Below, in pieces: positions 29,799 to 51,412 of a DNA stretch of 64,000 bases; positions within the stretch are counted from its first letter, which is position 1, and every line of letters begins with the position of its first letter. The position numbers and the translations under genes were made by a program. This stretch comes from an uncultured bacterium. Lineage in GTDB: Bacteria; Verrucomicrobiota; Lentisphaeria; Victivallales; UBA1829. The notes beneath the pieces were generated by a model that saw only the letters and a program-made list of their open reading frames with translations, was not told the DNA's origin and ran no database searches. The DNA is taken from assembly GCA_902778895.1 (NCBI GenBank), contig CACYZF010000004.1:69821-133820 (forward strand). The letters run 5' to 3'.

Positions 29799-29880
<82 letters not shown>

Positions 29881-31871: not shown

Positions 31872-32001
31872 TTGAGGTAGATCATGTTCAAGAACGTGTT
31901 TCAGTTTTCTTTTCCGGGACGACTATGGATTTTTCTTCTTTTTGACGTTTTCGCTTTATTGGAACCATGTGAAAGCGACCGTTCAAAACAAGGAGACGCA
32001 A

Positions 32002-33009: not shown

Positions 33010-33037
33010 TTGATTTTCTAAAGAATCATGATATTTT
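33010..33037 (+). promoter_or_regulatory. candidate promoter of the flp operon
   Basis: TTGATT-N16-TATTTT inside the AT-rich spacer. A strong RBS, TAGGAGGT, lies 7 nt before the flp1 ATG. Confidence 0.35.
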
Positions 33038-33094
33038 ATATTGTGGATCTTATATTGTGCACAATAACCCAAAACTCTTATAGGAGGTTACGCT

Positions 33095-33346
33095 ATGAAG
33101 TTCAAGTCCCAGAAAAAACACGCCGTCATGATGGAATACGTCATCATCGCAGTCCTGATCGCAGCCGCGGTCGTCGTGGCCGTGATCATGTTCGGCAAGA
33201 ACGTTTCCAGCGAAATGAATGTGGCGACGAAGTCCATGTCCGATGCGAAGGGCGCGGCAACCGCTCAGAAAGACATCCAGACGCAGTCCGAGAAGGATAT
33301 CAAGGCTGCGAACGAACACGAAAAGGCCATGCACAACTACAAATAA
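33095..33346 (+). CDS. flp: Flp/Fap-type prepilin 1
   Basis: KKHA-VMMEYVIIAVLIAAAVVVAV is the Flp leader plus EY motif and hydrophobic helix. 83 aa. Confidence 0.75.
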   Translation: MKFKSQKKHAVMMEYVIIAVLIAAAVVVAVIMFGKNVSSEMNVATKSMSDAKGAATAQKDIQTQSEKDIKAANEHEKAMHNYK

Positions 33347-33358
33347 GCGAGGCTGATT

Positions 33359-33607
33359 ATGCTGACTGTTCGAAAAAGACATGCCGTGATGATGGAATAC
33401 GTCATCATCGCGGTCCTGATTGCCGCCGCGGTCGTCGTGGCCGTGATCATGTTCGGCAAGAACGTTTCCAGCGAAATGAACGTGGCGACGCGTTCCATGT
33501 CCAATGCGAAAGGCGCTGAAAACTACCAGAAGAATATTCAGACGCAGTCCGAGAAGGATATCAAGTCCGCGAACGAACACGAAAAGGCCATGCACAATTA
33601 CAAGTGA
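33359..33607 (+). CDS. flp: Flp/Fap-type prepilin 2 (tandem paralog)
   Basis: RKRHA-VMMEYVIIAVLIAAAVVVAV. Near-identical to flp1 apart from the leader and a few C-terminal residues. Confidence 0.75.
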   Translation: MLTVRKRHAVMMEYVIIAVLIAAAVVVAVIMFGKNVSSEMNVATRSMSNAKGAENYQKNIQTQSEKDIKSANEHEKAMHNYK

Positions 33608-33630
33608 GCGTTCGCTTTTTAACTCGATTC

Positions 33631-33673
33631 GGACAGGAATGACGCGAATGCCTTGTTCCTGTCCTTTTCTCTC
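33631..33673 (+). terminator. hairpin plus T-rich tract between the pilin genes and the assembly genes (attenuator-like)
   Basis: GGACAGGAA (33631-33639) pairs with TTCCTGTCC (33656-33664), followed by TTTTCTCTCTT. Confidence 0.5.
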
Positions 33674-33678
33674 TTGAC

Positions 33679-34236
33679 ATGAACGCGTCGAACCTGATTC
33701 TCATCAAGCTGGTCCTGGCGACGCCCTGGCTGATCTGGCTTTCGGTGTGTGATTGCAAACGGCATGAACTCCCGAACCGCCTGACATTCGGCGGAGCGGC
33801 AGTCATGGCCGCGGTCGCTCTCGCCGCGGGCATTGATTATCTGCTCGGGTCGCTCATCACGGCGTTTCTGTCCATGCTCTTCCTGCTGCTGCCGTTCTTT
33901 CTGCGTGCGGCCGGCGCGGGCGATGTGAAGATGCTGTTCGCGGCGGGGCTGACCGCCGGTCCTCCGGGCCCCGAAATGGTCAACTTGCTGGTTCTGATCT
34001 TCATGGTTTCGCTGGCCGGTCTGCTCCTGGCCGTGGTGATGCTGCTGATGAGGCGGGTGAACACGGCGCGTCTGAAGCATTATCTGCGCTGCCTGTTCGA
34101 TTTCCGGTACGACCGCGAGGCGGGACGGAAGGCGATGCCGCCGCCGGACACGGAGGCCTGCCGGGTGCCGTTCGGCGTGGCGATCGCGATCGGAGTGTGG
34201 AGCTATCTGCTGATGCAGTTCATCCATACGATTTGA
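33679..34236 (+). CDS. tadV: A24-family prepilin peptidase (TadV/CpaA type)
   Basis: Polytopic membrane protein. First catalytic Asp context is SVCDCKRHELPN, second is AAGAGDVKMLFAAG. Confidence 0.85.
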   Translation: MNASNLILIKLVLATPWLIWLSVCDCKRHELPNRLTFGGAAVMAAVALAAGIDYLLGSLITAFLSMLFLLLPFFLRAAGAGDVKMLFAAGLTAGPPGPEMVNLLVLIFMVSLAGLLLAVVMLLMRRVNTARLKHYLRCLFDFRYDREAGRKAMPPPDTEACRVPFGVAIAIGVWSYLLMQFIHTI

Positions 34237-34249
34237 ACGAGGTGCGGCA

Positions 34250-34915
34250 GTGGTCAAGCGAAAATCATTTCTGAGAGAACGCAAAGGCGCCGTCCTGCTG
34301 GAGTTCGTGCTCTGTTTCCCGATCCTGCTTGTGCTGTTCTTTTTCGCGATCCAGCTGGCGCAGATCATGATCACGTGGCAGGTGGTGCATTACGCCGCCT
34401 TCATGGGCGCGCGGTCGTCCATGGTCACCAACAATATCCAGCGTCAATCCCAGGCGGAGAAGGTCGTGAAGCGCATCCTCGCGGTCGTTTCCGCCTCGCC
34501 TGTCGCAAATGGCAAAGGCGGCAAGGACGACCGGACGAAAGACGAATACTGCAAGCTCGACGGCTGGGGCTATCTGCCCGACACGAAATATCTGGAGAAA
34601 CAGGTGTCCGTCGACATCCCGCTGGTGGACATCGACCCCTCCGGCGTGCGCTGCACGGTCAAGTTCAAGATGTTTCTGAACGTCCCGGTCGCGGGCCCTC
34701 TGATCGCGTTCTTCGCGAACCCGAACAAGAAGGAAAAGGACTGGCAGAAGAAGCTCGACAATCAGGCGTACGCCCTGAACCCCGCGCTGCTCGCGGACGA
34801 TCCGCAGACGATCGAGCCGGATAAAGACTTGAAGATCCCGTATATCGAACTCAGTTCCACGAGCGTGGTCAACATCCCGTACGGAACAAAAAAATACCCG
34901 CTGGACGTTTTCTGA
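34250..34915 (+). CDS. TadE-like pseudopilin
   Basis: GTG start. RERKG-AVLLEFVLCFPILLVLFFFAIQLA is the TadE N-terminal signature. Confidence 0.75.
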   Translation: MVKRKSFLRERKGAVLLEFVLCFPILLVLFFFAIQLAQIMITWQVVHYAAFMGARSSMVTNNIQRQSQAEKVVKRILAVVSASPVANGKGGKDDRTKDEYCKLDGWGYLPDTKYLEKQVSVDIPLVDIDPSGVRCTVKFKMFLNVPVAGPLIAFFANPNKKEKDWQKKLDNQAYALNPALLADDPQTIEPDKDLKIPYIELSSTSVVNIPYGTKKYPLDVF

Positions 34916-34917
34916 AC

Positions 34918-36663
34918 ATGACGAACACACTTCCGACAAGCGTATGGGGCGTATTCAAAGCCCGCAGCACCGAGCTGGCGAAGGGAAACTCCGGCGCGGC
35001 GCTCGCGATTACGCTCGCGTTCGTCATGCCGATTTACCTGATGGTGATCGGGATCTACGGCATCGGCGAAGTGGTGCGGAACAAGATCGAGATCCAGAAC
35101 GCGGCGGACGCGGCGGCATATTCCGCGGCGGTCGTGCAGGCGGACTACCTCAGCCGCATGGCGACGGTGAACAAGGCGATGGCCTGGACCTACGTGGACC
35201 TGCAGAAACGTTCGCTCGACCTGGCGATGGATACGTTCTGCGCTACGGTCTTCACCAATTTCTCCAAAGATTTAGCAATGTGCGTCTCGCAGAACAGCCC
35301 GTGCCACATGCATACGCCGGGTCTCAATTGGAACTGCGGAACTGACGAACTCGTCTATGACAGCGTTCTCAAATTCGCCGGAACGGGCGTCGGCCTCCCG
35401 CTTGTGGCAAAGGAGTTCAACGGACAGGGGATGCTGTCAAGATTCCTGCTCAACCAGACCTATCATATCGCCGTGGCGAACATCAAGGGGAAAGGCACCG
35501 TCAGCAATCTGCCGAAGGTGATGACATACAGCTACAACATCATCAAGATGACAAAGAAGCTCGTCAATCTGAGGGACGAATACCAGAAAAAGGTCAAGGA
35601 GACCGCCCAGCAGATCGCCATCGCGAACATGATGGAATGTAAGGACGATTATTATGTAAAAGTCCACATGGGCGACATCAATCTGAGCTTCCTCACCATG
35701 CCGGGGACCGACGAAAACGAACAGACTTTCATCGCGTTTGCCGACCCGACGCTGAAGAGTTTCAAGCCGAAGGACGTGTTCGGCCGGGGGACGGACGTCT
35801 GGGTGAAACAGAAATCGCCCGTCGGCTTCTGGCGCGTTTACAAGCAGCAGAAAAAAGTCCTGTATGCGGAATGGGACTGGTTTTGGACCAAGTGGCGTCA
35901 TGTTCAGATCCTGTGGTATCAGGCCCACCTGCCGCCTTTCGCGCGCGGCTCCGGCGGCTGGAAGCGCGGCCACCCAAAGATCAAGGGAACCGACTTTCCG
36001 CTCATCAAAGAGAATATGCCAATCGGCCTGGTCGTTACGCCCGCGATTCCGATCACGCTTCTGCCGACCTTCTTCGGCAAGAGCGGGACCATCACGGTCG
36101 CGATCGTGCGGAAAACGGCGAATCCGCTGGCGAAATTCGACGGTCTCTTCTCCAACGCACAGTCGCTGACCGCGTCCGGGATACTTTCCGCGTTCAATCC
36201 GAGCGTGGGGAACGGCAGCCGTCCCGAGTTCATGTGCGCCATCGCGACCGCCCGCGCGGGCTACAAGACATACAACAAGGACAAGGAAGCAAAGATGAAG
36301 AGCTCCGACTACAACGTCGGATATGTGAAGGAAAGCCGCGAAAAGGAATGGAACCTGGTGGAGACCGACTGGGACGGCGTGATGCTGCCCGTGAAGCACG
36401 CCTGGGACCAGTGCGCCGGGGTCGGGATGGCGCAGACATTTGTCCCGCTTCCCGGAAGCGGCAGCATCCTGAAAGACATCTTCACCGACCGGAAGGGCTG
36501 GGTCGATTCGAAGGGGAAAGCCGCCGACGAGAAAAAGCTGCCCGAATGGGATAAGCTGAAGCCGCCGGGGGGCCTGATCACCGAGGATAACAAGAACAGC
36601 GGCGGCAAGAACGCCGAACAGAAACTGGACTGGGACAAACTCCGTGACTACCTTGGACATTAA
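34918..36663 (+). CDS. TadG-like (Tad_N domain) pilus assembly protein
   Basis: GNSGAALAITLAFVMPIYLMVIGIYGIGEVVRNKIEIQNAADAAAYSAAV matches the TadG/Tad_N pattern. 581 aa. Confidence 0.7.
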   Translation: MTNTLPTSVWGVFKARSTELAKGNSGAALAITLAFVMPIYLMVIGIYGIGEVVRNKIEIQNAADAAAYSAAVVQADYLSRMATVNKAMAWTYVDLQKRSLDLAMDTFCATVFTNFSKDLAMCVSQNSPCHMHTPGLNWNCGTDELVYDSVLKFAGTGVGLPLVAKEFNGQGMLSRFLLNQTYHIAVANIKGKGTVSNLPKVMTYSYNIIKMTKKLVNLRDEYQKKVKETAQQIAIANMMECKDDYYVKVHMGDINLSFLTMPGTDENEQTFIAFADPTLKSFKPKDVFGRGTDVWVKQKSPVGFWRVYKQQKKVLYAEWDWFWTKWRHVQILWYQAHLPPFARGSGGWKRGHPKIKGTDFPLIKENMPIGLVVTPAIPITLLPTFFGKSGTITVAIVRKTANPLAKFDGLFSNAQSLTASGILSAFNPSVGNGSRPEFMCAIATARAGYKTYNKDKEAKMKSSDYNVGYVKESREKEWNLVETDWDGVMLPVKHAWDQCAGVGMAQTFVPLPGSGSILKDIFTDRKGWVDSKGKAADEKKLPEWDKLKPPGGLITEDNKNSGGKNAEQKLDWDKLRDYLGH

Positions 36664-37345
36664 GACGTTATTGAAATCCGGGCGGGGATCGGTCCTGATG
36701 GAATTCGTGCTGGTTCTGCCGGTTTATATCGCGGTCATGGGCGGCACCCTGTGGATCGGGATGAAGTCGCTGGACGCGATCAATCTGCGTTCGGCTGACC
36801 ACTGGTCGGTCTGGAGCGAGGGCAACCGGTTCCAAATGCGTACGCCCGCCATGGTCGCGCTGCGGGACATGTTCCCGCGTTCCACGCTGGCCACGACGAA
36901 CGCGGCGCGGCGTCTGGAGGCGGAACACAGCTATCTGCAGTTCATCGCGTCGAAGACCACGATCATGGAGACTCGTCCGGACTATATCTCGAACTGGATG
37001 GACATGCCGTACACGATGAGCGGCCAATCGAAATCGCCATGGCAAATCATCCCGGAGCTCTCGATGTCCTCGTCCCGCTTCGGCAACAAGTACACGCAGT
37101 GCATTGTCATGCGCACGAAGGCGTCCAAAACCGCGAAACGCCACTGGCATTCGAGCCTGATCGCCGACAGGGGCATCTGGAAATTCGAGGGAAACGAGGA
37201 CAAGTATCCCTCCAAGTGGGAACTGAAGCTGATGGACAAAATCAAATACAAGGACGACAAGAAGGAAGAAGAAAAGGAACCGAAGAAGATCGACTTCTAC
37301 GAACGCTATGACACATATGAAGACTGGAGCGAGCCGGAGAAATGA
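36644..37345 (+). CDS. TadE-like pseudopilin 2
   Basis: GRG-SVLMEFVLVLPVYIAVMGG. GTG start overlaps the previous gene by 20 nt, so the start is uncertain. Confidence 0.65.
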   Translation: MTTLDIKTLLKSGRGSVLMEFVLVLPVYIAVMGGTLWIGMKSLDAINLRSADHWSVWSEGNRFQMRTPAMVALRDMFPRSTLATTNAARRLEAEHSYLQFIASKTTIMETRPDYISNWMDMPYTMSGQSKSPWQIIPELSMSSSRFGNKYTQCIVMRTKASKTAKRHWHSSLIADRGIWKFEGNEDKYPSKWELKLMDKIKYKDDKKEEEKEPKKIDFYERYDTYEDWSEPEK

Positions 37346-37788
37346 AGCGTCTGATGCCGTTCTTTCTGGTCTTCCTGCTGGTCTTCCTTTGCGGCACCGG
37401 ATTTCTGATGCTGAAAAGCGTGACCGCGAAGCCGGAGCCGCCCCGTCCGCAACAGCGAATAACGGAGCCCGTCAAGGGCGTCCTTCCCGCGCTGAATCTG
37501 CAGGACGAATCGAAGACCGCGCCGGGGACGGACAGCTGGGAATTCGAGGGACAGGTCAACTCGAATTACATTTCGACCAGAACGAAGTTCAGCGCGGCGC
37601 TGCTGCATGACGGCTGGAAGCCGGAGCGGCAGATCACGCTGGACGACAAGCTGTCTCCGCGCGTCCTGCTGACGTTTCAGAAGGGCGACCTGGAACTGAC
37701 CTTGATGCTGTGGAAAATTGATACCGGTACGACCGGTTTTACGTATCGGAGGGATCGAATCATCAACCCCGGAGTGGAACTTCAATGA
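37342..37788 (+). CDS. signal-anchored protein, function unknown
   Basis: ATGA-coupled on both sides. N-terminal MKRLMPFFLVFLLVFLCGTGFLML. No recognisable motif. Confidence 0.5.
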   Translation: MKRLMPFFLVFLLVFLCGTGFLMLKSVTAKPEPPRPQQRITEPVKGVLPALNLQDESKTAPGTDSWEFEGQVNSNYISTRTKFSAALLHDGWKPERQITLDDKLSPRVLLTFQKGDLELTLMLWKIDTGTTGFTYRRDRIINPGVELQ

Positions 37789-38861
37789 ACGAAAAAGACG
37801 CATCGTTTCTTGTCCTGTTTCTGGCGCCCGTCAAGGACTATCTGGCGGACGACAAGGTCTCGGAAATCCTGATCAACGGCCCGAACCAGATCTATATCGA
37901 GCGCGGCGGCAAACTTGAGGAGACCGAGGCGAAATTCGCCAGCGAGGCGCAGCTGAAGGCCGCCGCCGTGAACATCGCGAAATCGGTGGACCGTCAGCTG
38001 GACGAGATGCACCCCGACCTGGACGCCCGTCTCCCGGACGGTTCCCGCGTCCACGCCACGATCCCGCCCATCAGCCGCTGCGGCACGATCATCTCCATCC
38101 GCAAGTTCAAAAAGGATATGCTTACGCTGGAAAAACTCGAGGGATTCGGCAGCGTGCCGCATGAGGGCGTGCTGCTCCTGAACGCCATCGTGAAGTTGAG
38201 AAAGAACACCATCGTCTCCGGCGGAACATCCTCCGGCAAGACGTCCGTCCTGAACGCACTGAGCGGGCTGATCCCGGACAAGGACCGCATCCTCGTGCTG
38301 GAAGACGCCAGCGAGCTTCAGCTTCAGCAGCGGCACTGCGTCTACTTCGAGACACGCAAGCCGGACAAGAACGGACAGGGCGAGTTCTCCATCCGCGACC
38401 TCGTGATCGCGTCCCTGCGTCTGCGTCCCGACCGCCTGGTCATCGGCGAAATCCGCGGCGGCGAGGCGCTCGACCTGCTGCAGGCGATGAACACCGGCCA
38501 CTCCGGCTCCATGTCGACCATCCACGCGAACACCCCGGTGGATGCCCTGAGCCGTATGGAAACATGCTCCATCATGAGCGGCATCGAAATGCCGCTGACC
38601 GCCATCCGCATGCAGGTGGCCTCCGCCATCAACTGCGTGGTTCACACCATGCGCCTGCCCGACGGTTCCCGCAAGATCGTGGAGATCGCCGAGATCCTGC
38701 CGCTGGAACACGGCGAATACCGCACGCGCACGCTGATGAAGTGGCACACGGATTCGCTCGCGCCGGACGGGACCGTCTCCGGACGCTTCATCCTCGGCGA
38801 AAAGCCTTCGTTCGCCGACGACGCGAAGATCATGGGCATCGAGCTTCCGGACTATCCATGA
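37785..38861 (+). CDS. CpaF/TadA/VirB11-family secretion ATPase (short form, no FHA)
   Basis: Walker A GGTSSGKTS. Asp box ILVLEDASEL. Walker B RPDRLVIGEIRGGEA. His box GHSGSMSTIHAN. Confidence 0.9.
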   Translation: MNEKDASFLVLFLAPVKDYLADDKVSEILINGPNQIYIERGGKLEETEAKFASEAQLKAAAVNIAKSVDRQLDEMHPDLDARLPDGSRVHATIPPISRCGTIISIRKFKKDMLTLEKLEGFGSVPHEGVLLLNAIVKLRKNTIVSGGTSSGKTSVLNALSGLIPDKDRILVLEDASELQLQQRHCVYFETRKPDKNGQGEFSIRDLVIASLRLRPDRLVIGEIRGGEALDLLQAMNTGHSGSMSTIHANTPVDALSRMETCSIMSGIEMPLTAIRMQVASAINCVVHTMRLPDGSRKIVEIAEILPLEHGEYRTRTLMKWHTDSLAPDGTVSGRFILGEKPSFADDAKIMGIELPDYP

Positions 38862-39757
38862 CGGGAAACGGGTCCGGCAGCGCATTTTTCTCCGGCGAAA
38901 TCGTCTGCGGCAGCGTTCTTCAGCAGCTTCTCCGCGTACGGGAAAACAGCCGGGAGATCTGGCTGGCGTACGATACCGGCCTCAAGACCCATGTCATCCT
39001 CAAATTTATCCGTGAGGATGATCGAGGCGCGGAGCATCTTCCCGAACTTGCGGATTTCCTTATGCGGACGAAAAGCCCGTCGCTGATCCGTGTTCTGGAA
39101 GCACCGCAAAAAGTTGCCGGATACATCGTCGAAAAACAGGAGTATGCCGTCGGCGGCTCGCTGACATCAAGACTAAAACACTCGGGCAGGCTTCCCCTCG
39201 CGCAGACCGTCTATGTCATGCGGGAGGTGCTTCTTGCATTACAGGAGCTCCATACGAACGGGATCATTCACCGCGACATCAAGCCCGGCAACATCCTGAT
39301 CGCGTCGGACGGCGAGATCAAGGTGGGGGATTTCGGGATCGCGCGTCCGGTGCGGTTTTCGGAGAAAGGCCCCGATGTCTTCGGCACGCCGTCCGCCATG
39401 TCGCCCGAACAGACGCTCGACACGACGAAAGTCGATTGCCGCACGGATTTCTTCAGCCTGTCGTCCGTGATATATGAACTCCTGACATGGCGTCCGCGAT
39501 TTCCGCACGGGACACTGCTGGAAACGGGTGCGCTTGTCAGGAAAAGCCGTCCGGAGGACCTGGTGCGGGATTTGCAGCCGTTTGCAACGACGGACCTGTG
39601 TCATCTGCTGGGCTGGATGGCGGAACCGGACCCGGTGAAGCGGCCCCCGACAGCCGGGATCATTCTGGAAGAGCTTGACAGGCTTCGGCTGCCCTGCGAG
39701 CCATTGTCAGGAGAGCGGAAAACGCCGGAACAGCAGAGCCCGCCGGAACGAGCTTGA
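38858..39757 (+). CDS. Hanks-type Ser/Thr protein kinase
   Basis: Start trimmed to MTGNG (ATGA overlap with the ATPase stop). VILKFI Lys, catalytic loop HRDIKPGNIL, DFGIA, GTPSAMSPE. Confidence 0.9.
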   Translation: MTGNGSGSAFFSGEIVCGSVLQQLLRVRENSREIWLAYDTGLKTHVILKFIREDDRGAEHLPELADFLMRTKSPSLIRVLEAPQKVAGYIVEKQEYAVGGSLTSRLKHSGRLPLAQTVYVMREVLLALQELHTNGIIHRDIKPGNILIASDGEIKVGDFGIARPVRFSEKGPDVFGTPSAMSPEQTLDTTKVDCRTDFFSLSSVIYELLTWRPRFPHGTLLETGALVRKSRPEDLVRDLQPFATTDLCHLLGWMAEPDPVKRPPTAGIILEELDRLRLPCEPLSGERKTPEQQSPPERA

Positions 39758-40534: not shown

Positions 40535-40725
40535 GGGATCGGCAGGGAAATGACGGTTACGATGCGCTGGTACATGGATACCACAGCCTTGCCGACCGTG
40601 CCGAACCCGCCGGAAAACAGTTTGTTGGAATAGACGGCCGCGGACGCTCCGAAAACGAGCGGAAGGATCGAACAGACGAGGAGCACGTATTCCAGCAGAA
40701 CGCCGTGTTTTTTCCGAATTCTCAT
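40531..40725 (-). CDS. flp: Flp-type prepilin 3 (divergent)
   Basis: MRIRKKHG-VLLEYVLLVCSILPLVFG. 64 aa. ATGA-coupled to the upstream FHA gene. Confidence 0.65.
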   Translation of the reverse strand: MRIRKKHGVLLEYVLLVCSILPLVFGASAAVYSNKLFSGGFGTVGKAVVSMYQRIVTVISLPIP

Positions 40726-43112: not shown

Positions 43113-44590
43113 TATTCGTCAAGCGTCCAGATGTTTTGCATGATTCTGAGATGCCGATAGTCATCGGGCGACGGAAATTTTGAAAGACATATATTGACCA
43201 CATCCCTCATCATGAGCCAGTTTTCACTTTGTTCATAATGCTGGTATGCCAGACACGCCTGCGCGTACCAAAGTGCCTGCCGTTCCCGGAAATCCTGCAG
43301 AAGCCCCAGGGCGTCTTCCATCATTTCCTCATCGTTTGCCTTTCCTGCGAGGGAAAGCAGGAGAGCGAACTTCTGCTTGATCTCCGTCCAGTCGGTGATC
43401 GCGACATTGACCATCATTTTGGACAGCAGGGTGCGGTACAGTTCCGTTTTGGAAACGCCTTCCGGAATGGTCTCCGGGATTTCCCAGTAACTGTTCGCGG
43501 CATCCGGGGAAGCAACGAAACAGCCATAATTGGTCAGGACTTTTTCCGCGCGCCAGTAGTGCTGAACCGGGACTTCGCGCGTAAAAATGATCTCTTTGTC
43601 GTGGTAACGCAAATAGCTGACAAACCCCTGCCACTGGAAATCGTTGTCATTCCGTTTGTATCCCATGGTCTGATAAGGGATGCCGCAAGTCGAGATGGAA
43701 TAGAACTTGTCTTCCGGAAGCTTGAGGAATGTGAAGCCGTGATTCTCTTCCGCATCCTTCTTCCAGTCGCTGAAACTATCCTTGCGGGAAACGACAAAAC
43801 CATCGGGAACATCGTTCACCACAAGTTTCAGGTGGAACACGACATCCAGATGCTTGCCCAGCAAAGTCATCACCTCGCAGTTCGTTTCCGTTTTCTCGAC
43901 CTTTGTCTGGGAACACTCCGGATAATAGATCATGAAATTTCCCTTGGGCGGCAGCTCGATGCGGAATTCCCCGTCGTTGAAAACTCCGGTCACTTCACCC
44001 GGCCAGGTCACGGGATTTTCCAGCTCCAATTCGGAATAGAGGAAACCGCCTCCGATCACCGCAAGCAGCAGAATGACCGCAAAGGCAAACGTAAACTTCC
44101 TGCGGCTGGTCTGCTTCTGAGAAAAACGCCTCAGATCGTCAAGTTCCTCCTCGGAGGCGTAACGGGTCTTATCTTCTTTTTTTTCTCCGCTTTCCGCTCC
44201 GCCGTCGACCGTGCCGTCTTCCGTCGTCTCGTCGTCATCGGGTGAGAAAGGCGAAGACATCACCACCGGGATCGTACCGTCTTCTTCCTCGATGCTGAAA
44301 AACAGCTTCTTCCCGAGACGCACGGCCATTCCGGGCTTCAGTTCCGTCTCCATGCCGGGTTCCAGCTGTTTGTCGTCGACGAACACGGATTCGGCATAGG
44401 ATTTGAGGACAAGCGCGGAATCGGACTCCCGGACAAACAGGAATGCATGCTGAATCGCGATGTCCTCTCCGCCCGGACGGATTCCCGCCGTTTGCGATTT
44501 TCCGATCATGACCCCTTCGGCCGGCACGACGAAGGACCTGCCGGAGAGCTCGCCGCCTGTGAAGAGGATCTTGTAATATTTTGATTCCAT
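43112..44590 (-). CDS. FHA-domain single-pass membrane protein with an uncharacterised C-terminal domain
   Basis: N-terminal FHA-like domain (VMIGKSQTAGIRPGGEDIAIQHAFL...VFVDDKQL), acidic linker, TM helix FAFAVILLLAVIGGGFLY, then about 300 aa of unknown function. Confidence 0.7.
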   Translation of the reverse strand: MESKYYKILFTGGELSGRSFVVPAEGVMIGKSQTAGIRPGGEDIAIQHAFLFVRESDSALVLKSYAESVFVDDKQLEPGMETELKPGMAVRLGKKLFFSIEEEDGTIPVVMSSPFSPDDDETTEDGTVDGGAESGEKKEDKTRYASEEELDDLRRFSQKQTSRRKFTFAFAVILLLAVIGGGFLYSELELENPVTWPGEVTGVFNDGEFRIELPPKGNFMIYYPECSQTKVEKTETNCEVMTLLGKHLDVVFHLKLVVNDVPDGFVVSRKDSFSDWKKDAEENHGFTFLKLPEDKFYSISTCGIPYQTMGYKRNDNDFQWQGFVSYLRYHDKEIIFTREVPVQHYWRAEKVLTNYGCFVASPDAANSYWEIPETIPEGVSKTELYRTLLSKMMVNVAITDWTEIKQKFALLLSLAGKANDEEMMEDALGLLQDFRERQALWYAQACLAYQHYEQSENWLMMRDVVNICLSKFPSPDDYRHLRIMQNIWTLDE

Positions 44591-44604
44591 TTCGTCACCT
44601 CACC

Positions 44605-45510
44605 TCAGAACAAAGGAACGCCCGATTCTTTCATTTTCAGAAAGACCGGCGTAAGGATGATAATGAACACTGCCGGAAGGATGAAAAGCGCCATCGGAAG
44701 CAACATCAGGGACGGCGCACGCTGAGCTTTGCATTCGGCGATCGAGAACCGCAGTTTGCGCATTTCCTCGCTCTGGATATCCATCGTATCCGCCAGGGAC
44801 GCGCCGAGTTCCGTGCCCATCACCACGGCCGACGCGAACGATGTGAACTCCTTGATCTGAATCCGGTCCGCCATGTTCTGGAGCGCGGCCGTGCGGATGA
44901 CGCCGAGTTCCATTTCCCTGAGCATGGTCCGGTATTCATCCGTCAGCGGGCCTTTGACCCCCAAATTCACATAGAACCGGATCGCCGCGGTGAAATCCAG
45001 ACCGCCGCGCATCGCGGATGAAATCAGGTCGATGGAAAAAGGAATCGCCTGAAGGATTTTCGTCTTGCGTTCCTGGACCAGATTGCCAACCGCGATGCCG
45101 GGAAGGAACCAGCCGATGAACACGCCGATCAGCGCCGCGACCGGGATGGCTCCCCGCTGATCCGGAGGGACCACCATCCATGTCCCCATGGCAAACGCCG
45201 CGCCCATCGCCAAAACCAGAAAAATCCGGGCTTCATAGACGAACGCGGGAGCGAGGTCAAGGCCCGCATACTGAAGCTTTTTCCGCATTGCGCGGCATTG
45301 CGCGGGGAAGAGCTTATAGATCAGACTGCCGAACCCGAGCGCGTCCATGATGGCGACGGGTGTGGCGCAGAGCCGGAAGACCGATGGCGTTTCATCATCC
45401 TCTTCCTTCTTTTTGCGCGAGGCGGGAGTGTTGTCCGTGAAGAGAACATATCCCATGACCGGCAGAAGCACCACCAGGAACGTTATCAGATAAATGACCG
45501 TACGATTCAT
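44605..45510 (-). CDS. tadC: TadC-like platform protein (T2SS-F domain)
   Basis: AIPFSIDLISSAMRGGLDFTAAI and C-terminal TM helices typical of the T2SSF family. Confidence 0.8.
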   Translation of the reverse strand: MNRTVIYLITFLVVLLPVMGYVLFTDNTPASRKKKEEDDETPSVFRLCATPVAIMDALGFGSLIYKLFPAQCRAMRKKLQYAGLDLAPAFVYEARIFLVLAMGAAFAMGTWMVVPPDQRGAIPVAALIGVFIGWFLPGIAVGNLVQERKTKILQAIPFSIDLISSAMRGGLDFTAAIRFYVNLGVKGPLTDEYRTMLREMELGVIRTAALQNMADRIQIKEFTSFASAVVMGTELGASLADTMDIQSEEMRKLRFSIAECKAQRAPSLMLLPMALFILPAVFIIILTPVFLKMKESGVPLF

Positions 45511-45511
45511 A

Positions 45512-46408
45512 TTACACCTTCACATCCACGATTGCACGGATCACGAAGTATCCGATCGTTTCCAGCGTCAGCATGACCCCGATGGCGCACCATCCGATCA
45601 GCGTTTTCACCATCGGCATCATCAGATCGTTGTTGATGACGAACAGGAGCACGAACGCCAGAAGCGGCGCGAGAGACATGGCAAGCGCTTCGAACCGCCC
45701 CTGCGCCGTCAGCGCCTTCAGCTTCTGTTGAAACTCAATTCGGCCGCGGATCGTTTGCGTAATGCGCTGGAGGACATCCGCCAGGCTTCCGCCGGACTGC
45801 AACGTCAGACGGATCGAAATGATCAGGAGCTGAAGGTCTTCGCACGGCAGGCGGTCGTACATGCGCTGAAGCGCATCCGGCAGCTCCACGCCGAGACGGT
45901 ATTCCTTCAGCACGACGTCGAGTTCTTCTTTCAGGGTACCCTCGCTCCGGCGGGCGAAGACTTCCAGCGCCTGGGGCAAGGCCTGTCCTGCGCGCAGGCC
46001 GCTGGTCAATCCCATGGAGAGATCAAGGATGCTGCCTTCGAAGTCGAGGGCGCGTTTCTTCACTTTCCGGGAGTAATACAGGAGCGGAGCCGCGTACCCG
46101 ATGCCGAGCGCGATCAAACTGACGGGAACCAGCACATAAAACATGTAAACCTTGCAGAAAAGCAGGATCGAAACGATGACCGCCATCAGGAGAATCCCGA
46201 TGGAGAACTGGATCTGCAGCAGGACCTGGGGAGAAACGAAATACCCGATGTCGTTGCGATGTCCGCCGAGGTTCCTGTCTTTGACTTTATGGTCGAAATG
46301 CTCCATGCCGACCTGCTGGACCAGGCCGACGGACAGAAAGATCAGGAGAAACACCGCGGCGAAGACCAGCAGGTAAATCCCGTATTTGCTCAGGAATGAC
46401 GAATTCAT
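45512..46408 (-). CDS. tadB: TadB-like platform protein (T2SS-F domain)
   Basis: LDLSMGLTSGLRAGQALPQALEVFARR. N- and C-terminal TM helices. Confidence 0.8.
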   Translation of the reverse strand: MNSSFLSKYGIYLLVFAAVFLLIFLSVGLVQQVGMEHFDHKVKDRNLGGHRNDIGYFVSPQVLLQIQFSIGILLMAVIVSILLFCKVYMFYVLVPVSLIALGIGYAAPLLYYSRKVKKRALDFEGSILDLSMGLTSGLRAGQALPQALEVFARRSEGTLKEELDVVLKEYRLGVELPDALQRMYDRLPCEDLQLLIISIRLTLQSGGSLADVLQRITQTIRGRIEFQQKLKALTAQGRFEALAMSLAPLLAFVLLFVINNDLMMPMVKTLIGWCAIGVMLTLETIGYFVIRAIVDVKV

Positions 46409-46414
46409 GGTGAC

Positions 46415-48124
46415 TCAGTTCTCCGGTACGAATACGGACATGTCCAGCTGAAGGTCGCCGGACTGCCGGAGTTCATCGATGAAACGCGGGATGTTGCCGG
46501 TCGCCGTATGATGTCCGAGGACATGGAATTTTTCATCGAATCCCTCCTGCTCGAACGTGAAGATGTCCTGCATCAGGATGATGCCGTTTTCGCGGCCCGT
46601 GACCTCGCTGATCTTTACGATCTTGCGGGATCCGTCCGGCAGGCGCGTCTGCTGAACGATCAGGTGGATCGCCGATGCGATCTGTTCCCGGATCGCGGCG
46701 GACGGCAGTTCGAATCCTGCCATCATGACCATATTTTCCAGGCGGGACAGCGCGTCGCGCGGCGTATTGGCATGGCAGGTCGTCATGGAGCCGTCGTGGC
46801 CCGTGTTCATCGCCTGAAGCATATCCAGCGCTTCAGGGCCGCGGCATTCCCCGACGATGATCCGGTCGGGACGCATGCGCAGCGTGTTGATGACGAGGTC
46901 GCGGATCGTGATCCGCCCCTGTCCTTCCACGTTGGCGGGACGAGCCTCAAGGCGGCAGAGGTTCTCATGCGTAAGCTTCAGTTCTGCCGAGTCTTCGACC
47001 GTGATGATGCGTTCCTTTTCGGGGATGAACAGCGAAAGGATGTTCAGGAGCGTCGTCTTGCCGGATCCCGTGCCGCCGGAGACCAGGATATTTCTGCGGG
47101 CGCGGACCGCCTCCTTCAGAAAAAGCGTCATGGCGTGCGTCAGGCTTCCGAACTTCTCCAGGTCGTCCGAGGTCAGCTTCTTCGACGGGAATTTGCGGAT
47201 CGTGACTAGGGAACCGTCGAGCGCGAGCGGGGGAATGACCGCGTTCACGCGGGAACCGTCCTTAAGTCGGGCGTCGACCATCGGGGACGCCGCGTCGATA
47301 TGACGTCCCAGCGGCTCCACGATTCGCTGGATGATCGACTGCAGATGCGCCTCGCTATGGAATTTGGACGGAGTCCGGTACTGCAGACCTTTGCTTTCGA
47401 TGAAAATGTGCTCCGGACCGTTGATCATGATCTCGGAAATGGACGCATCGCGCAGAAGCGGGGAAAGAGGACCGAGGCCGATCAGATTGTCCATCAGCGT
47501 TTGTCTGAGCAGGTCGATGTTTACTTCCGGGGGGATTTCGTGACGGATTTCACGGAGAACCTGATCCACCGCGCTTTCCACCTGCGGACGCATGGAAGCG
47601 TTCGAAAGGTTGTTCTGCGTTTCGTTGTTCACATTGAGCAGTTCCAGAACACGTGTCTGGACACGCTTCGACAGCTGCATCATTTTTTCGGTGAAGAGGC
47701 TCTGCTGTTCCTTCTGCGCCGAATAGATGGGAAGGGTGTGTCCTGATCCGGGTATGGAATCCGGGAGCGGACCCGACGGCATCGAGGCAGAAGAGGAAGC
47801 ATTGTTCCGCAGTGAAACCGCCATGTCAGTCGCGGCTGCCCCCGAACTCGGCTGGACCATGAACTCGAAATCGGAAATGCTCAGGACGTCGCCTGCGATC
47901 AGCTCCGTCTTCTCCTTGACGGGAACGCCGTTTATCCGCGTCCCCGCGTGGCTTTCCAGGTCGCGGACGAACACCTTGCCGTCCTGTTCCGTGATCTCGG
48001 CATGGCGGCGCGACACATGCTTGTCCGGGATTCGGATGTCGGCGTCCTCGTGCCGGCCGATGATCAGACAGCAGCCGGTAGGAAGTTCGATGGAGCGTTT
48101 TTCGTTTTTGAATATAAGCTTCAT
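46415..48124 (-). CDS. cpaF: FHA-domain / CpaF (TadA) ATPase fusion
   Basis: Start trimmed to MKLIFKNEK. FHA is LIIGRHEDADIRIPDKHVSRRHAEI...HAGTRINGV. ATPase has Walker A GGTGSGKTT, IITVEDSAEL, RPDRIIVGECRGPEA and GHDGSMTTCHAN. Confidence 0.9.
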   Translation of the reverse strand: MKLIFKNEKRSIELPTGCCLIIGRHEDADIRIPDKHVSRRHAEITEQDGKVFVRDLESHAGTRINGVPVKEKTELIAGDVLSISDFEFMVQPSSGAAATDMAVSLRNNASSSASMPSGPLPDSIPGSGHTLPIYSAQKEQQSLFTEKMMQLSKRVQTRVLELLNVNNETQNNLSNASMRPQVESAVDQVLREIRHEIPPEVNIDLLRQTLMDNLIGLGPLSPLLRDASISEIMINGPEHIFIESKGLQYRTPSKFHSEAHLQSIIQRIVEPLGRHIDAASPMVDARLKDGSRVNAVIPPLALDGSLVTIRKFPSKKLTSDDLEKFGSLTHAMTLFLKEAVRARRNILVSGGTGSGKTTLLNILSLFIPEKERIITVEDSAELKLTHENLCRLEARPANVEGQGRITIRDLVINTLRMRPDRIIVGECRGPEALDMLQAMNTGHDGSMTTCHANTPRDALSRLENMVMMAGFELPSAAIREQIASAIHLIVQQTRLPDGSRKIVKISEVTGRENGIILMQDIFTFEQEGFDEKFHVLGHHTATGNIPRFIDELRQSGDLQLDMSVFVPEN

Positions 48125-48131
48125 GGACAGA

Positions 48132-49802
48132 TTACCACGTGAACATTCTTTCAAACCACGTTTTCTGTTCGTTTTCCTGGACTTTGAGATTTTCCGCATT
48201 GACCCGTTCGGAAACCTCCTGCTCCAGCGTGGCGTTTTCTTCGGACGGACGCGTCTCCATCTTAAAGTTCTGATCCATCAGTTCCGGCGACACCAGGATC
48301 AGCATCTGGAGTTCTTCGCCCTTGTCTTCTTCGGACGACGCGAACCAGTTGATAACCGGAATATGCCGGAGGAACGCATAACCGGACGGTCCTTCATGAG
48401 AAAAAGTCAGCTCCTTCTGTCCCGCGATGACGGCTGTTTTTCCGAGCGGACAGATCAGCGTCGTCTTGGTTTTGCTCTTGCTCTGGACATAGTCGTCGCC
48501 GTCCCGGACCGGAGGCAGACTCCGTTCCAGATCCAGATTCAGCTTGACCGTATTGTCTTCCTGAAGGAATGCCTGGGCCTTGTATTTCAGTCCGTACTCG
48601 ATCTCCTTCATGTCGGCGGTATCCCGTCCGTACACCTTGACCTGGCGCGTGCCGCCGTTTTCATACGTGGATTCGTCGCCGTTGTTCGTGAGCGTGATGT
48701 GTCCCGCGTCGCGGAAATCGGCGATCCCGTTCTGTCCGAAGAACACCAGAGCCCCCTTCAGATTCGTTTCGAGCGTAATCGAGCCGCCTGCATGCTGGCT
48801 GCCATGGCTGTCGATCGCGTCCTTTGCGCCGCCGTACAGCGCCTTGAACCAGCCAACGACGTCCCACGTCAGGACCGTGCCGTCCGCATTGGCGTTTCCA
48901 AGACGTTCCAGCTGTTTTCTAGTCACGCCGACGAAGACGACTCCGAGGTCGACCTGGGATGGCACGATTCTCAAGTCGGTTTTGAGGCTGGCATTGTTGC
49001 CGTTCCACTCCGGATCCAGCCAGCGTTGCGCCGAGAGGATGGATTCGACCGTTTTAATGCCGTCTTCGGAGTACAGATATCCACGCACGGTCAGGACGGT
49101 CCCGGTAAGGTTCATGGACAGCTTGCCGGGTGCTTCCGGACCGGATTGTTCCTCCACGGGGAATCCGGCGTCCGTCAGCTGTTTTTTCAAATCGGCGATC
49201 AGTTTCGTATCCGGGACAAAAGCAACGTAGCTGTTGCATCTGCTTTCATAGGACTGCAGGATGCGGCGGAAATAATCCCAGTGGACGGGCTGCGTAATGA
49301 TGCCGCGGAGAACAAGCCCCCCGTCGTACATCTGCAGGGTGACTTCCGGAAGCTCCTCCAGAAGACGACTCATTTCCTGATACGTCTGAAGCGTCGAGTT
49401 ATATACCGTGATATGAAAACTCTTCTCGATGCCTCCGGCATGGACCGTGATGACGGCACGGCCGGGCGAAACCCCGGACACCTCGAACGTGTTGGCGTTG
49501 ACATGCTCGATCTTGACGTTGGACGAATCCGATTTGCAGGATTCGATGGTGAACGGCATGCTCAGTACGCGTTTTTCCCCGACGGTGATGGAGATCTGTT
49601 CCTGCATCGGATCGTTCCCGTTTTCGTTCTGCGAACCGAGCGCCTGAGTGATCGCCTTCACGATATCTTCCTGAGATACCTGAACTTCGTTTGCCTGGGA
49701 CTGACCCGGGGCGCCGGACGGCTGCTGAGCCGTCTGGCCCATGCCGGGAAGTGTCAGAAGAATGCCTGCCAGCAGAAGGAATGCTGTCGTAATTCTTTTC
49801 AT
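48132..49802 (-). CDS. cpaC: secretin (CpaC/RcpA type)
   Basis: Signal peptide. C-terminal secretin block GKTAVIAGQKELTFSHEGPSGYAFLRHIPVINWFASS...LILVSPELM. Confidence 0.85.
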   Translation of the reverse strand: MKRITTAFLLLAGILLTLPGMGQTAQQPSGAPGQSQANEVQVSQEDIVKAITQALGSQNENGNDPMQEQISITVGEKRVLSMPFTIESCKSDSSNVKIEHVNANTFEVSGVSPGRAVITVHAGGIEKSFHITVYNSTLQTYQEMSRLLEELPEVTLQMYDGGLVLRGIITQPVHWDYFRRILQSYESRCNSYVAFVPDTKLIADLKKQLTDAGFPVEEQSGPEAPGKLSMNLTGTVLTVRGYLYSEDGIKTVESILSAQRWLDPEWNGNNASLKTDLRIVPSQVDLGVVFVGVTRKQLERLGNANADGTVLTWDVVGWFKALYGGAKDAIDSHGSQHAGGSITLETNLKGALVFFGQNGIADFRDAGHITLTNNGDESTYENGGTRQVKVYGRDTADMKEIEYGLKYKAQAFLQEDNTVKLNLDLERSLPPVRDGDDYVQSKSKTKTTLICPLGKTAVIAGQKELTFSHEGPSGYAFLRHIPVINWFASSEEDKGEELQMLILVSPELMDQNFKMETRPSEENATLEQEVSERVNAENLKVQENEQKTWFERMFTW

Positions 49803-49815
49803 GGTTTACCGCCGT

Positions 49816-50634
49816 TTATTTCGTGGAGTTTGCAGTTTCGTTCGAGAGCAGCGCCGTATCCAGGTCGGAACGCACGGCTTCGAACGTTTTCGAGTTCACG
49901 GCCCCGATTTCCGAACGATTCCGTGCGGACGGATCGTTTCTTCTGCGGAGAATCGGGAAAAGTTCCGCTTCATGCTGTGCCGCCAGCAGGATTGTCGCCT
50001 GCCGGGGAGGAAGGGATACGTAGATCGTGGCGGTCGCACTGCCCGGCTCGCGGAAAAGGCCGTTGCTGTTATCGAGCCCGATCACCTCAATGCAGGGGAA
50101 CAGGATAACGGTTTCGCGTTCCTCCTTCACGTCCGCCTTCATAGCCGCTTCCGGATCCTTGAGCAGCTCTTCCGAGGTCGCTTTCGGGTGTTCGACGTTG
50201 GTGTGTGCATAAAGTGCCGCGATCGCTATTTCGTCCTGCGGACGCAGCATTTTTACAAGGGTCGGATCGGAAAACGTCACCGGGACCAGCCATTGGCCGG
50301 TGGTGACGCAGTCCGCCAGGGAGATGTTCAGCTGAATGTCATCGAACATGACGTAGCTGCCGCGTTTGATCGCACGCGGGATCTTCTGGCCGTAGGTCAG
50401 GCTGACGCTGTCCCAGAGAATCGCGGATTGCGGGACCGCCGATTCCGGCAGGTTTTTGAACGAGCACGCGCCCGGCATGAGCTCTTCTCCCGCTTCAAGA
50501 TCGCGGGCTGCGACCACAACGGATATCTGTGGCTCCTGTTCGGTGTCCTGGTTTTTGACAAGGACGTTGCTCACCATGTAAACGGCTGCAAGTCCCAGGA
50601 GGACGGCTACGATCAGCGGAATGACATTCTTCAT
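49816..50634 (-). CDS. cpaB: CpaB/RcpC-like pilus assembly protein (SAF domain)
   Basis: N-terminal anchor IPLIVAVLLGLAAVYMV. VVVAARDLEAGEEL SAF-type motif. GAGG RBS. Confidence 0.8.
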   Translation of the reverse strand: MKNVIPLIVAVLLGLAAVYMVSNVLVKNQDTEQEPQISVVVAARDLEAGEELMPGACSFKNLPESAVPQSAILWDSVSLTYGQKIPRAIKRGSYVMFDDIQLNISLADCVTTGQWLVPVTFSDPTLVKMLRPQDEIAIAALYAHTNVEHPKATSEELLKDPEAAMKADVKEERETVILFPCIEVIGLDNSNGLFREPGSATATIYVSLPPRQATILLAAQHEAELFPILRRRNDPSARNRSEIGAVNSKTFEAVRSDLDTALLSNETANSTK

Positions 50635-51355: not shown

Positions 51356-51412
51356 CGTCTGACTACGGATCAGAAGGTTTTTGGTTCAAATCCCTCCTGG
51401 TGCACCATTTTG
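51356..51412 (+). repeat. attR-side direct repeat (displaced, degenerate 3' half of tRNA-Arg)
   Basis: 52/57 identical to 29824-29880. There is no 5' half, and the T stem is disrupted (GGG to TTT). Confidence 0.8.

Follow-up and report, generated by a model that had tools for sequence, protein, structure and literature searches.

The 64,000-nucleotide stretch of contig CACYZF010000004.1 analysed here (hereafter, the window) derives from a rumen Victivallales bacterium and carries, on a tRNA-Arg island, a locus that very probably encodes an intact pilus-like machine of the Tad/Flp class (type IVc). The locus would fall within an FHA-rich subfamily of such machines from the Planctomycetes–Verrucomicrobia–Chlamydiae (PVC) bacteria, comprising Lentisphaeria/Victivallales, Kiritimatiellae and gut Opitutales. 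Its 18 genes form two convergent strings, one on the plus strand (33095–39757) and one on the minus strand (50634–39707). Within each, neighbouring genes are spaced by 1–14 nt or overlap by 1–20 nt—the sole exception being the 71 nt between the Flp2 and A24 peptidase genes—and all 18 reading frames are intact. The 3' ends of the two operons overlap by 51 bp (39707–39757), where the kinase gene runs into the gene of an HExxH membrane protein, with no terminator-like site between the two. A scan for promoters and terminators returned counts not above chance; two promoter-like sites in plausible positions, 50827–50799 (−) and 33028–33056 (+), were not used as evidence. A preliminary description of this DNA had proposed two such tightly coupled operons holding a full Tad/Flp parts list, two CpaF-type ATPases, four FHA domains in three proteins, a kinase with an intact HRD/DFG/SPE core and an HExxH membrane protein, and lacking TadZ, TadD, RcpB and a PP2C phosphatase. 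Our domain calls—drawn from Pfam, NCBIfam, matches to the PDB, and AlphaFold models searched with Foldseek—bear out these items, and the profile scan that had been suggested as a check supports both the FHA and the kinase assignments, the FHA domain of a 492-amino-acid protein being weak in Pfam.

The plus-strand operon opens with two putative Flp-type prepilins, Flp1 (33095–33346; 83 amino acids, aa) and Flp2 (33359–33607; 82 aa), whose Flp_Fap matches (E values of 7e-4 and 1e-3; 19–20 bits) fall below the gathering score of 32.2. There follow an A24 prepilin peptidase of the TadV/CpaA type (33679–34236; 185 aa; Peptidase_A24, 2.5e-13), a first TadE-like pseudopilin with the leader RKG/AVLLEF, the slash marking the cleavage site (34250–34915; Pfam TadE, 1.2e-9), a TadG-like large minor pilin of 581 aa (34918–36663; Pfam Tad, PF13400, 1.9e-6) and a second TadE-like pseudopilin (36644–37345; Pfam TadE, 1.9e-4). 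The leader of the latter, KSGRG/SVLMEF, is retained only with a GTG start at 36644; in the record of an identical sequence (L001), the protein is called as 215 aa from a later start, and the leader is lost. Next come a membrane-anchored 148-aa protein (37342–37788; no Pfam match), which has a relative immediately 5' of a PP2C gene in a Kiritimatiellae locus, and a short CpaF-type ATPase to which we refer as ATPase2 (37785–38861; 358 aa; T2SSE, 4e-52). The last gene encodes a soluble Hanks-type Ser/Thr kinase (38858–39757; 299 aa; Pkinase, 1.5e-31), its start overlapping the ATPase2 stop by 4 nt.

On the minus strand, a CpaB/RcpC-like protein (49816–50634; 272 aa; SAF, and TIGR03177 CpaB at 73.5 bits with a cut-off of 71) is followed by a secretin (48132–49802; 556 aa; Pfam Secretin, 4.6e-10), the FHA-CpaF motor ATPase (46415–48124; 569 aa; FHA, 6e-18; T2SSE, 3.7e-63), a TadB-type platform protein (45512–46408; T2SSF, 8.7e-16) and a TadC-type one (44605–45510; T2SSF, 6.3e-14). 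The last two, of 298 and 301 aa, are encoded by adjacent genes and represent a GspF-domain platform split in two. Behind them lie the genes of two large FHA proteins with a transmembrane (TM) helix, namely a 492-aa FHA-TM protein (43112–44590; a weak YscD_cpl match of 1.3e-3 in Pfam, the FHA call coming from AlphaFold and Foldseek) and a 796-aa FHA-FHA-TM protein (40722–43112; FHA in two stretches, 3.2e-27). The operon closes with Flp3, a putative Flp-like prepilin of 64 aa (40531–40725), and the HExxH membrane protein (39707–40534; 275 aa), neither of which has a Pfam match. In the HExxH protein, which has hydrophobic helices, all 26 sequences that were aligned share the motif ETLAHEMxHA, and its two His and its Glu never vary; searches for a related family or structure gave nothing significant, and weak matches to SprT-like zinc proteases were returned for 7 of 15 members.

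Three parts were sought in vain. No ParA/MinD-type (TadZ/CpaE) domain was found in the 18 locus proteins or in the other island genes. Neither a TPR lipoprotein of the TadD type nor an RcpB-like match emerged among the locus proteins, small lipoproteins being easily overlooked in such scans. A PP2C domain was missing from all 18 proteins, and a tblastn search with PP2Cs of related loci gave no match anywhere in the 64-kb window.

All three Flp calls are based on the leader KK[HR][AGS]V[ML][ML]EY and the hydrophobic helix behind it, both kept in 13–29 orthologues. When these leaders are aligned to the pseudopilin pattern G/[AS]VL[LM]EF, the position of Gly(−1) is taken by His or Arg in all orthologues. 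This suggests either a Flp cleavage site shifted by one residue, with a small residue at −1 and Glu at +4, or a peptidase that would accept a basic −1 residue.

The four FHA domains are distributed over FHA-CpaF, the 492-aa protein and the 796-aa protein, which has two. Each of the latter two proteins possesses one hydrophobic TM helix. The 492-aa protein begins with its FHA domain (residues 1–104). A disordered acidic linker follows (107–144, where pLDDT drops below 50) and leads into a long membrane-crossing helix, behind which lie an alpha/beta domain resembling PsbP (best Foldseek match 2xb3, E 2e-5) and a helical domain. In the AlphaFold model of the protein (pLDDT 84), residues 1–104 have a true FHA fold, which Foldseek matched to FHA domains including those of YscD and Chlamydia CT664 (E 6e-7 to 2e-5; TM-scores of 0.7–0.85, normalised to the target). 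In the 796-aa protein, FHA1 (27–122) and FHA2 (135–228) precede the TM helix (239–263) and an all-helical C-terminal domain (267–793) in the AlphaFold model (pLDDT 83), and Yop-YscD_cpl matches the protein twice (2.9e-21); beyond the FHA domains, Foldseek found no PDB match for this protein. Since FHA domains would reside in the cytoplasm, the C-terminal parts of both proteins are inferred to be periplasmic. SctD-like periplasmic rings were considered for these parts and rejected, given a PsbP-like plus helical composition in one protein, an all-helical one in the other and no SctD match in Foldseek. In one orthologue of the 796-aa protein (L023, ~10400–10550), a 47-residue insertion containing an X lies between FHA1 and FHA2 and is probably an assembly artefact.

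We compared the FHA domains with the pattern of GarA, which we take to read GR...SRRH...SLNGT in the relevant fragment, in a register that agrees with the Foldseek matches to GarA and OdhI (~35% identity). The FHA domain of FHA-CpaF has the Arg, Ser and His of this pattern; its Asn is Ala in the window and Thr, Gly, Ala or Tyr elsewhere. FHA2 of the 796-aa protein keeps Ser, His and Asn, and the Arg is replaced by a Ser that is invariant in the clade. FHA1 retains Arg and His and is devoid of Ser and Asn, but is fully canonical in two distant relatives (L040 and L044, introduced below). The FHA domain of the 492-aa protein keeps the His, with Lys for Arg, Ala for Ser and no Asn; most of the window clade has the Arg, and the distant relatives L040–L044 read GR...SxxH. 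On account of these residue losses, the window clade seems to represent the family in a partly degenerate form. The FHA domain of FHA-CpaF, the only one in the window with both the phosphate-binding Arg and the Ser, is the best remaining candidate for a phosphothreonine (pThr) reader. As to what might be read, the linker of the 492-aa protein, otherwise unalignable, contains the motif T142-R-Y-A-S a few residues before the TM helix. At 22–24% overall identity, this Thr motif reads TRYAS in the window and TRLAT, TQIAS and TVLVS in L040–L042, each time followed by EE..L[RK]. We take T142 as the foremost candidate for a site that is phosphorylated and bound by an FHA domain.

Both ATPases matched solved CpaF best among PDB entries, at 378 bits for FHA-CpaF and 294 bits for ATPase2, with the next families (archaeal GspE2, FlaI and VirB11) reaching at most 144 and 115 bits, respectively. 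FHA-CpaF comprises an FHA domain, a disordered linker and the CpaF core. ATPase2 aligns to CpaF residues 145–490, that is, to the N-terminal and catalytic ATPase domains only, and is devoid of the FHA domain, the disordered linker and the three-helix bundle. Its catalytic elements are intact, including Walker A (GGTSSGKT), the Asp box, Walker B with the catalytic Glu (DRLVIGEIRG) and the His box. ATPase2 is 51% identical to FHA-CpaF from its own locus, 49% to KilF, the FHA-fused ATPase of the Myxococcus xanthus Kil apparatus, and 44% to Caulobacter CpaF; for FHA-CpaF, the values are 61% to KilF, 61% to Burkholderia gladioli CpaF and 52% to Caulobacter CpaF. We placed both proteins in a neighbour-joining tree (304 columns, 100 bootstraps, no outgroup) for which the reference sequences were copied out of the published Kil supermatrix (PMC8460266). 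The PVC FHA-CpaFs formed a clade at 100% that was not sister to the M. xanthus KilF, Bdellovibrio or Bradymonas sequences and had Achromobacter FHA-CpaF as its sole suggested neighbour (59% bootstrap). The short ATPases, from the window clade and L040, formed their own 100% clade on a long branch, with the deep nodes lacking support. ATPase2 as a recent copy of the neighbouring FHA-CpaF was rejected on the grounds of the 51% identity and of this separate clade shared with the L040 enzyme. As the slowest-evolving protein of the locus, ATPase2 appears to have diverged long ago. A homologue search with ATPase2 returned only orthologues of 85–99% identity. Wherever a short ATPase was seen, in the window clade and in L040, its gene adjoins that of a kinase or a PP2C.

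The kinase keeps the VAIK Lys, HRD(I/V)KPxN, DFG (DLG in five sequences), SPE and the activation-segment Gly-Thr in 21 orthologues. Its alignments to solved PLK1, PknB, PknA and StkP mostly start at residues 80–115 and in few cases at ~34, implying an atypical N-lobe.

We next set out to determine how widely this arrangement is conserved, scanning genomes of GTDB species with the 796-aa protein and inspecting ~2 kb of flank around most loci, with taxon labels taken from the records. This returned 29 loci, all labelled Victivallales or Lentisphaeria except three from Opitutales or Coraliomargarita sp. CAG:312. One half of the locus runs in the order CpaB, secretin, FHA-CpaF, TadB, TadC, FHA-492, FHA-796, Flp3 and HExxH, and converges on the other, which—read from the junction—holds the kinase, ATPase2, the 148-aa gene, TadE, TadG, TadE, A24, Flp and Flp. 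Nearly all of the 29 species loci that were long enough kept this 18-gene order as a whole; the kinase was present in every locus reaching its position, and ATPase2 in all but one. In L029, the pilin operon is collinear with the core, and in L021, L027 and L030, unrelated genes follow HExxH where the pilin/ATPase2/kinase operon would be expected. Flanking genes were common only to very close pairs. The gene-order search put forward in the preliminary description thus recovered the same arrangement in ~29 species, and the ATPase phylogeny put forward with it did not yield the sisterhood to KilF.

Mean identities between the window proteins and the Victivallis-like clade differ markedly along the locus. 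ATPase2 has the highest value (86%), followed by Flp1 and Flp2 (76–77%), FHA-CpaF (72%), the minor pilins, A24 peptidase and TadB (62–66%), CpaB (49%) and the secretin (48%). The HExxH protein (44%), the 492-aa protein (43%), the kinase (39%) and the 796-aa protein (37%) are the most variable. We read this pattern as suggestive of purifying selection.

From word-indexed searches with the 796-aa and 492-aa proteins, the family had seemed confined to Lentisphaeria; this was rejected after an exhaustive HMMER search, which exposed the limited sensitivity of the former. Using a 30-sequence profile of the 796-aa protein, HMMER returned 214 representatives at E<=1e-30; among the 150 best listed, ~130 are full-length proteins (750–880 aa). 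Those members that bear a name belong to Victivallaceae, Kiritimatiellae and 'Lentisphaerae bacterium ADurb.Bin242'. We sampled this wider family at six loci with Tad context. A core of seven genes—CpaB, secretin, FHA-CpaF, TadB, TadC, a ~500-aa FHA-TM and a ~780-aa FHA-FHA-TM protein—recurs in these distant loci. L040, which is close to Lentisphaerae bacterium ADurb.Bin242, encodes a 909-aa PEGA kinase, RcpC, secretin, FHA-CpaF, TadB, TadC, FHA proteins of 551 aa (FHA) and 756 aa (FHA-FHA), a PP2C and a 354-aa T2SSE protein that is 65% identical to ATPase2. L041 (Kiritimatiellae) and L043 comprise the core, a small and a longer Flp-like gene, A24, TadE, TadG, further genes and a terminal PP2C. 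In a further locus (P0438), a PP2C gene lies just upstream of the core, and L044 has an upstream 1900-aa kinase with two kinase domains. A gene for 64–75 aa, the position of Flp3, follows the FHA-FHA gene in the sampled relatives, mostly directly and in L043 behind two short genes. The collinear order in L029 and L041–L044 implies that the convergent layout of the window is derived, an inversion having divided what was once one collinear operon.

A PP2C, a kinase or both thus adjoin the core in five of the six sampled loci; in the sixth, L042, neither was found in the 21.7 kb up to the contig end. This recurrence indicates that a link to Ser/Thr phospho-signalling is a trait of the family. The kinases of the distant relatives are large and receptor-type, with PEGA/CarboxypepD_reg repeats in the 909-aa protein (L040, 1–2481) and 1900 aa in L044 (1–1977), whereas the window enzyme is a bare 299-aa domain. 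One distant member of the FHA-FHA-TM family lies outside a Tad locus: in a Kiritimatiellae metagenome-assembled genome (L038, 302–9311), this member, which has an added PEGA domain, and a small FHA protein are encoded beside a 1303-aa TssM-like protein (IcmF-related_N). This scaffold type may therefore serve another machine, too.

With respect to its genomic setting, the locus had been proposed to reside on a tRNA island, and the boundaries agree with this. A tRNA-Arg(ACG) gene identified by ARAGORN, Rfam and blastn (29799–29875, +) marks the integration site. A direct repeat of 57 bp, consisting of the 3' 52–57 nt of the tRNA, brackets ~21.5 kb in the same orientation, its left copy being the 3' half of tRNA-Arg (29824–29880, +; blastn) and its right copy a displaced tRNA-Arg 3' fragment at the right island end (51356–51412, +; 52 of 57 positions identical, E 7e-16). 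Such a tRNA-3' direct repeat is a classical signature of an element integrated in a tRNA gene. The island contains a low-GC left arm, the Tad locus and a 77-aa open reading frame (ORF). The left arm encodes an AAA_14/DUF4143 ATPase, which is not an integrase (30175–31461, −; Pfam 2.3e-29 and 8.9e-13), and a small HTH_17 protein (31942–32331, +; Pfam 1.6e-5), perhaps AlpA- or excisionase-like to judge by the family name, at 25.5 bits with a gathering score of 27. No integrase was found in the left arm or near the right repeat. GC content is 0.55 in the island versus 0.59–0.62 outside; at third codon positions, the Tad genes are similar in GC content to chromosomal genes, so the element is not compositionally foreign.

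The junctions imply that the genomic context varies among close strains. The 97% identical locus L009 (Victivallales Tb.RUG.336, from the same species group) ceases to match the window at ~50956 and continues into a GH115 gene, where the window has the direct repeat and an MFS gene; L002, a rumen scaffold of the same species, has the right junction of the window, tRNA fragment included. No tRNA gene was found within ~2 kb of the locus in other species, except for L031. Further right in the window, a tRNA-Ser(GGA) gene (55350–55439, −) is followed by a lower-GC stretch (~0.52) up to ~57300 whose ORFs have no Pfam match, and 55350–57300 may represent a second tRNA-associated insertion.

How might such a machine operate? 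We propose, by analogy with Kil and with the threonine-phosphorylation switch of type VI secretion systems (T6SS), that the subfamily shares the architecture of the former and works like both. The two single-pass FHA proteins encoded behind TadB and TadC would form an inner-membrane and periplasmic scaffold, taking over the assembly-hub role of TadZ and perhaps that of TadD/RcpB. The soluble kinase would phosphorylate cytoplasmic Thr sites, T142 of the 492-aa protein being the best candidate, and the FHA domain of FHA-CpaF would read the phosphorylated site, so that the main motor would dock at the platform, or become active there, in a phosphorylation-dependent manner. ATPase2, in turn, might serve as a minimal second motor on the same platform, powering an opposing, retraction-like or an alternative step in the manner of PilB and PilT; this reading draws on the pared-down architecture of ATPase2, on its being the most conserved protein of the locus and on the placement of its gene beside that of a signalling enzyme wherever seen. 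Regulation by phosphorylation through the FHA domains is, in our judgement, probable by a narrow measure. A role of ATPase2 in retraction is a tentative suggestion, possible rather than probable. The output of the machine would be either an adhesion pilus or Kil-like, contact-dependent delivery.

The preliminary description had already inferred that kinase-dependent interactions between pThr and FHA domains switch the machine. The conserved kinase motifs and the PP2C or kinase genes in five of six relatives speak for this part of it; several observations weigh against it, and they feed the strongest competing explanation, which we consider doubtful. Here, the FHA domains would be phospho-independent structural modules, as in SctD proteins (YscD, MxiG, PrgH) and EssC, and the kinase a pseudokinase or a regulator of some other target, for instance ATPase2 or pilin expression. 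The complete canonical pThr-binding set of Arg, Ser, His and Asn was found in none of the four window FHA domains. Asn is missing from eight of eight aligned PVC FHA-CpaFs, the phosphate-binding Arg of FHA2 is absent from 141 of 143 family members (present in two), and both FHA1 and the 492-aa FHA domain have lost Ser—together with Asn—in the window clade. The best Pfam match of the 492-aa protein is to the YscD cytoplasmic domain, and there is a precedent in MxiG-N, described as a cytoplasmic FHA domain of an inner-membrane ring protein of a type III secretion system (T3SS; PMC3162421). As for the kinase, the position of the Gly-rich loop reads LRVRExSExW, without a glycine, in 21 of 21 orthologues; its N-lobe appears divergent, and activity is not assured. 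The window encodes no PP2C, so that reversibility would need a phosphatase encoded elsewhere. To these points must be added that ATPase2 is missing from one locus that has the kinase (L026), that the periplasmic parts of the FHA-TM proteins have no SctD-like ring-building motifs and that the roles given above to ATPase2 and the FHA-TM proteins are drawn by analogy.

Other findings are hard to reconcile with purely structural FHA domains. The catalytic residues of the kinase are kept in 21 orthologues despite an overall identity of 35–40%, and genes for a PP2C or a kinase are found next to the core in distant relatives as well. In those relatives, FHA1 is canonical (L040, L044) and the FHA domain of the ~500-aa protein has the GR...SxxH pattern (L040–L044). 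FHA-CpaF, finally, keeps Arg, Ser and His throughout. We therefore retain phospho-regulation as the favoured explanation, with FHA-CpaF as the putative reader.

A second alternative concerns the purpose of the machine and is compatible with phospho-gating: rather than an adhesion pilus, it could be a Kil-like device for contact-dependent killing or effector delivery. The layout of FHA proteins is that of Kil, and the window operon includes the protease-like HExxH protein. Some relatives add a further hint, since in L042, a 949-aa lipase-like protein is encoded inside the pseudopilin operon (18074–20923), and in L044, phospholipase-like and Peptidase_C92 genes occupy the equivalent place (17811–19541 and 20712–21797). 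The lipase-like families concerned are Mbeg1-like, Phospholipase-like and Lipase_3; their products and the C92 protein are possible effectors or pilus-tip enzymes. However, the window locus contains no lipase, amidase or toxin-immunity pair, the PVC ATPase clade does not lie next to KilF in the tree, and TadG is present in the window but missing in Kil. Signs of predation by Victivallales, at which no search here was aimed, did not turn up. For the window itself, we consider this explanation unlikely.

Less probable still is that ATPase2 does not oppose FHA-CpaF at all, the two instead assembling into mixed hexamers or ATPase2 driving a second filament type (Flp1/Flp2 as opposed to Flp3) on the same platform. 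Flp3 does travel with the core, whereas Flp1 and Flp2 share the other operon with ATPase2, and type IV filament ATPases have been proposed to form heterohexamers (PMC6711533). Against this, collinear relatives have both pilin types in one operon, and the short ATPase of L040 is encoded beside the core with no pilin genes adjoining. That the island is defunct and the locus on it a decaying passenger without function—as the missing integrase and the partly degenerate FHA domains and Gly-rich loop might suggest—is scarcely credible in view of 18 of 18 intact and tightly coupled frames, intact catalytic motifs and a gene order kept in ~29 species at 37–86% identity.

Phospho-regulation and a second motor could also be combined into one, far-reaching picture. 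ATPase2 would then be an independently evolved, dedicated second motor for retraction or firing, its exchange with FHA-CpaF at TadB/TadC would be set by the kinase/phosphatase switch of the locus via FHA binding at the juxtamembrane Thr, and the PVC family would be a non-deltaproteobacterial counterpart of Kil that delivers lipase or amidase effectors in gut and rumen. Taken as a whole, we regard this picture as improbable. If true, a second CpaF-like subfamily acting on this one platform would mean that motors have duplicated and specialised a second time, independently, and would offer a natural system in which to study how extension and retraction are divided between motors. Irrespective of this, FHA-rich Tad-like machines are not confined to predatory Deltaproteobacteria and occur commonly among Victivallales, Kiritimatiellae and Opitutales of gut and rumen, organisms whose surface biology is, to our knowledge, essentially unstudied.

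Among described systems, the canonical Tad/Cpa machines (Aggregatibacter Tad, Caulobacter Cpa) share with the window Flp-type prepilins (putative in the window), TadV/CpaA, TadE/TadF/TadG-type pilins, TadB/TadC, CpaF/TadA, RcpA/CpaC and RcpC/CpaB. The window adds a second ATPase, two large FHA-TM proteins, the kinase and the HExxH protein, and TadZ/CpaE, TadD and RcpB were not found. Canonical Tad systems operate with one bifunctional ATPase (PMC12019362; bioRxiv 10.1101/616128; PMC6711533). An FHA domain joined to CpaF through an intrinsically disordered region is the hallmark of the recognised class III CpaFs, which are mostly betaproteobacterial (PMC12019362); the 569-aa window ATPase has the same architecture and groups, at 59%, with the Achromobacter xylosoxidans representative. 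Unlike that class, for which no partner kinase is known, the window combines an FHA domain devoid of Asn with further FHA proteins, a kinase and a second ATPase.

The two FHA-TM proteins resemble CdsD and other SctD proteins in having one or more cytoplasmic FHA domains, one TM helix and a large periplasmic part. In Chlamydia, likewise a PVC bacterium, the two-FHA protein CdsD is phosphorylated by PknD (PMC2765968). The window machine, however, is of the Tad type rather than a T3SS, and its periplasmic domains are not ring-building motifs. The H1-T6SS of Pseudomonas aeruginosa is governed by a threonine-phosphorylation pathway consisting of the receptor kinase PpkA, the phosphatase PppA and the FHA protein Fha1. 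A Hanks kinase and an FHA protein, with a PP2C in relatives of the window, are similarly encoded inside the locus of a nanomachine here, and the proposed mode of action is modelled on this case; the machine itself is a different one, its kinase is a bare soluble domain as opposed to the receptor PpkA, and the window has no PP2C.

The closest parallel is Kil, which the preliminary description had presented, correctly, as a Tad-like apparatus with FHA domains on several components. Kil has an FHA-fused ATPase, its single one, and an over-representation of FHA proteins, with no TadG, RcpB or TadD, and has been reported as restricted to predatory Deltaproteobacteria (PMC8460266). In the Kil gene table, MXAN_4648 (FHA and TPR), MXAN_4649 (FHA, PrgH-like), KilH and KilG follow one another (PMC8460266), an order that mirrors the 796-aa protein, the 492-aa protein, TadC and TadB of the window, as judged by domain content and gene order only. 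Both systems have a motor ATPase with an N-terminal FHA domain alongside further FHA proteins, CpaB, a secretin, an A24 peptidase and short pilins; both are without RcpB and TadD, and TadZ appears neither in the Kil gene table nor in the window locus. Yet Kil is encoded in two distant clusters, with TadG reported missing, one ATPase and no kinase or phosphatase reported, whereas the window has a TadG-like protein, two ATPases and a kinase. FHA-CpaF is equally identical (61%) to KilF and to Burkholderia gladioli CpaF, and since the PVC clade is not sister to KilF, the ATPase marker, the only one used, does not support direct Kil orthology.

The preliminary description had been unable to match the locus to any described system. 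This holds in part: an FHA-fused ATPase with two FHA proteins behind the platform is the Kil layout, and FHA-CpaF is a known class (PMC12019362), but an in-locus kinase or phosphatase together with a second ATPase subfamily is undescribed in an FHA-rich Tad machine. Our full-text literature search returned no paper on a locus of the Tad type in which a Hanks kinase or PP2C is embedded alongside a second CpaF-like ATPase, nor any on Tad systems of Lentisphaerae. For Kil, an upstream phospho-cascade has been proposed (PMC8460266; PMC12428579), and a 2025 review still counts its FHA proteins among candidate signalling components for which no kinase is known (PMC12428579). The PVC loci offer the candidate signalling enzymes for FHA-rich Tad machines that are missing for Kil; with the kinase or phosphatase encoded in the locus and one conserved candidate pThr, the partners become directly testable by biochemistry.

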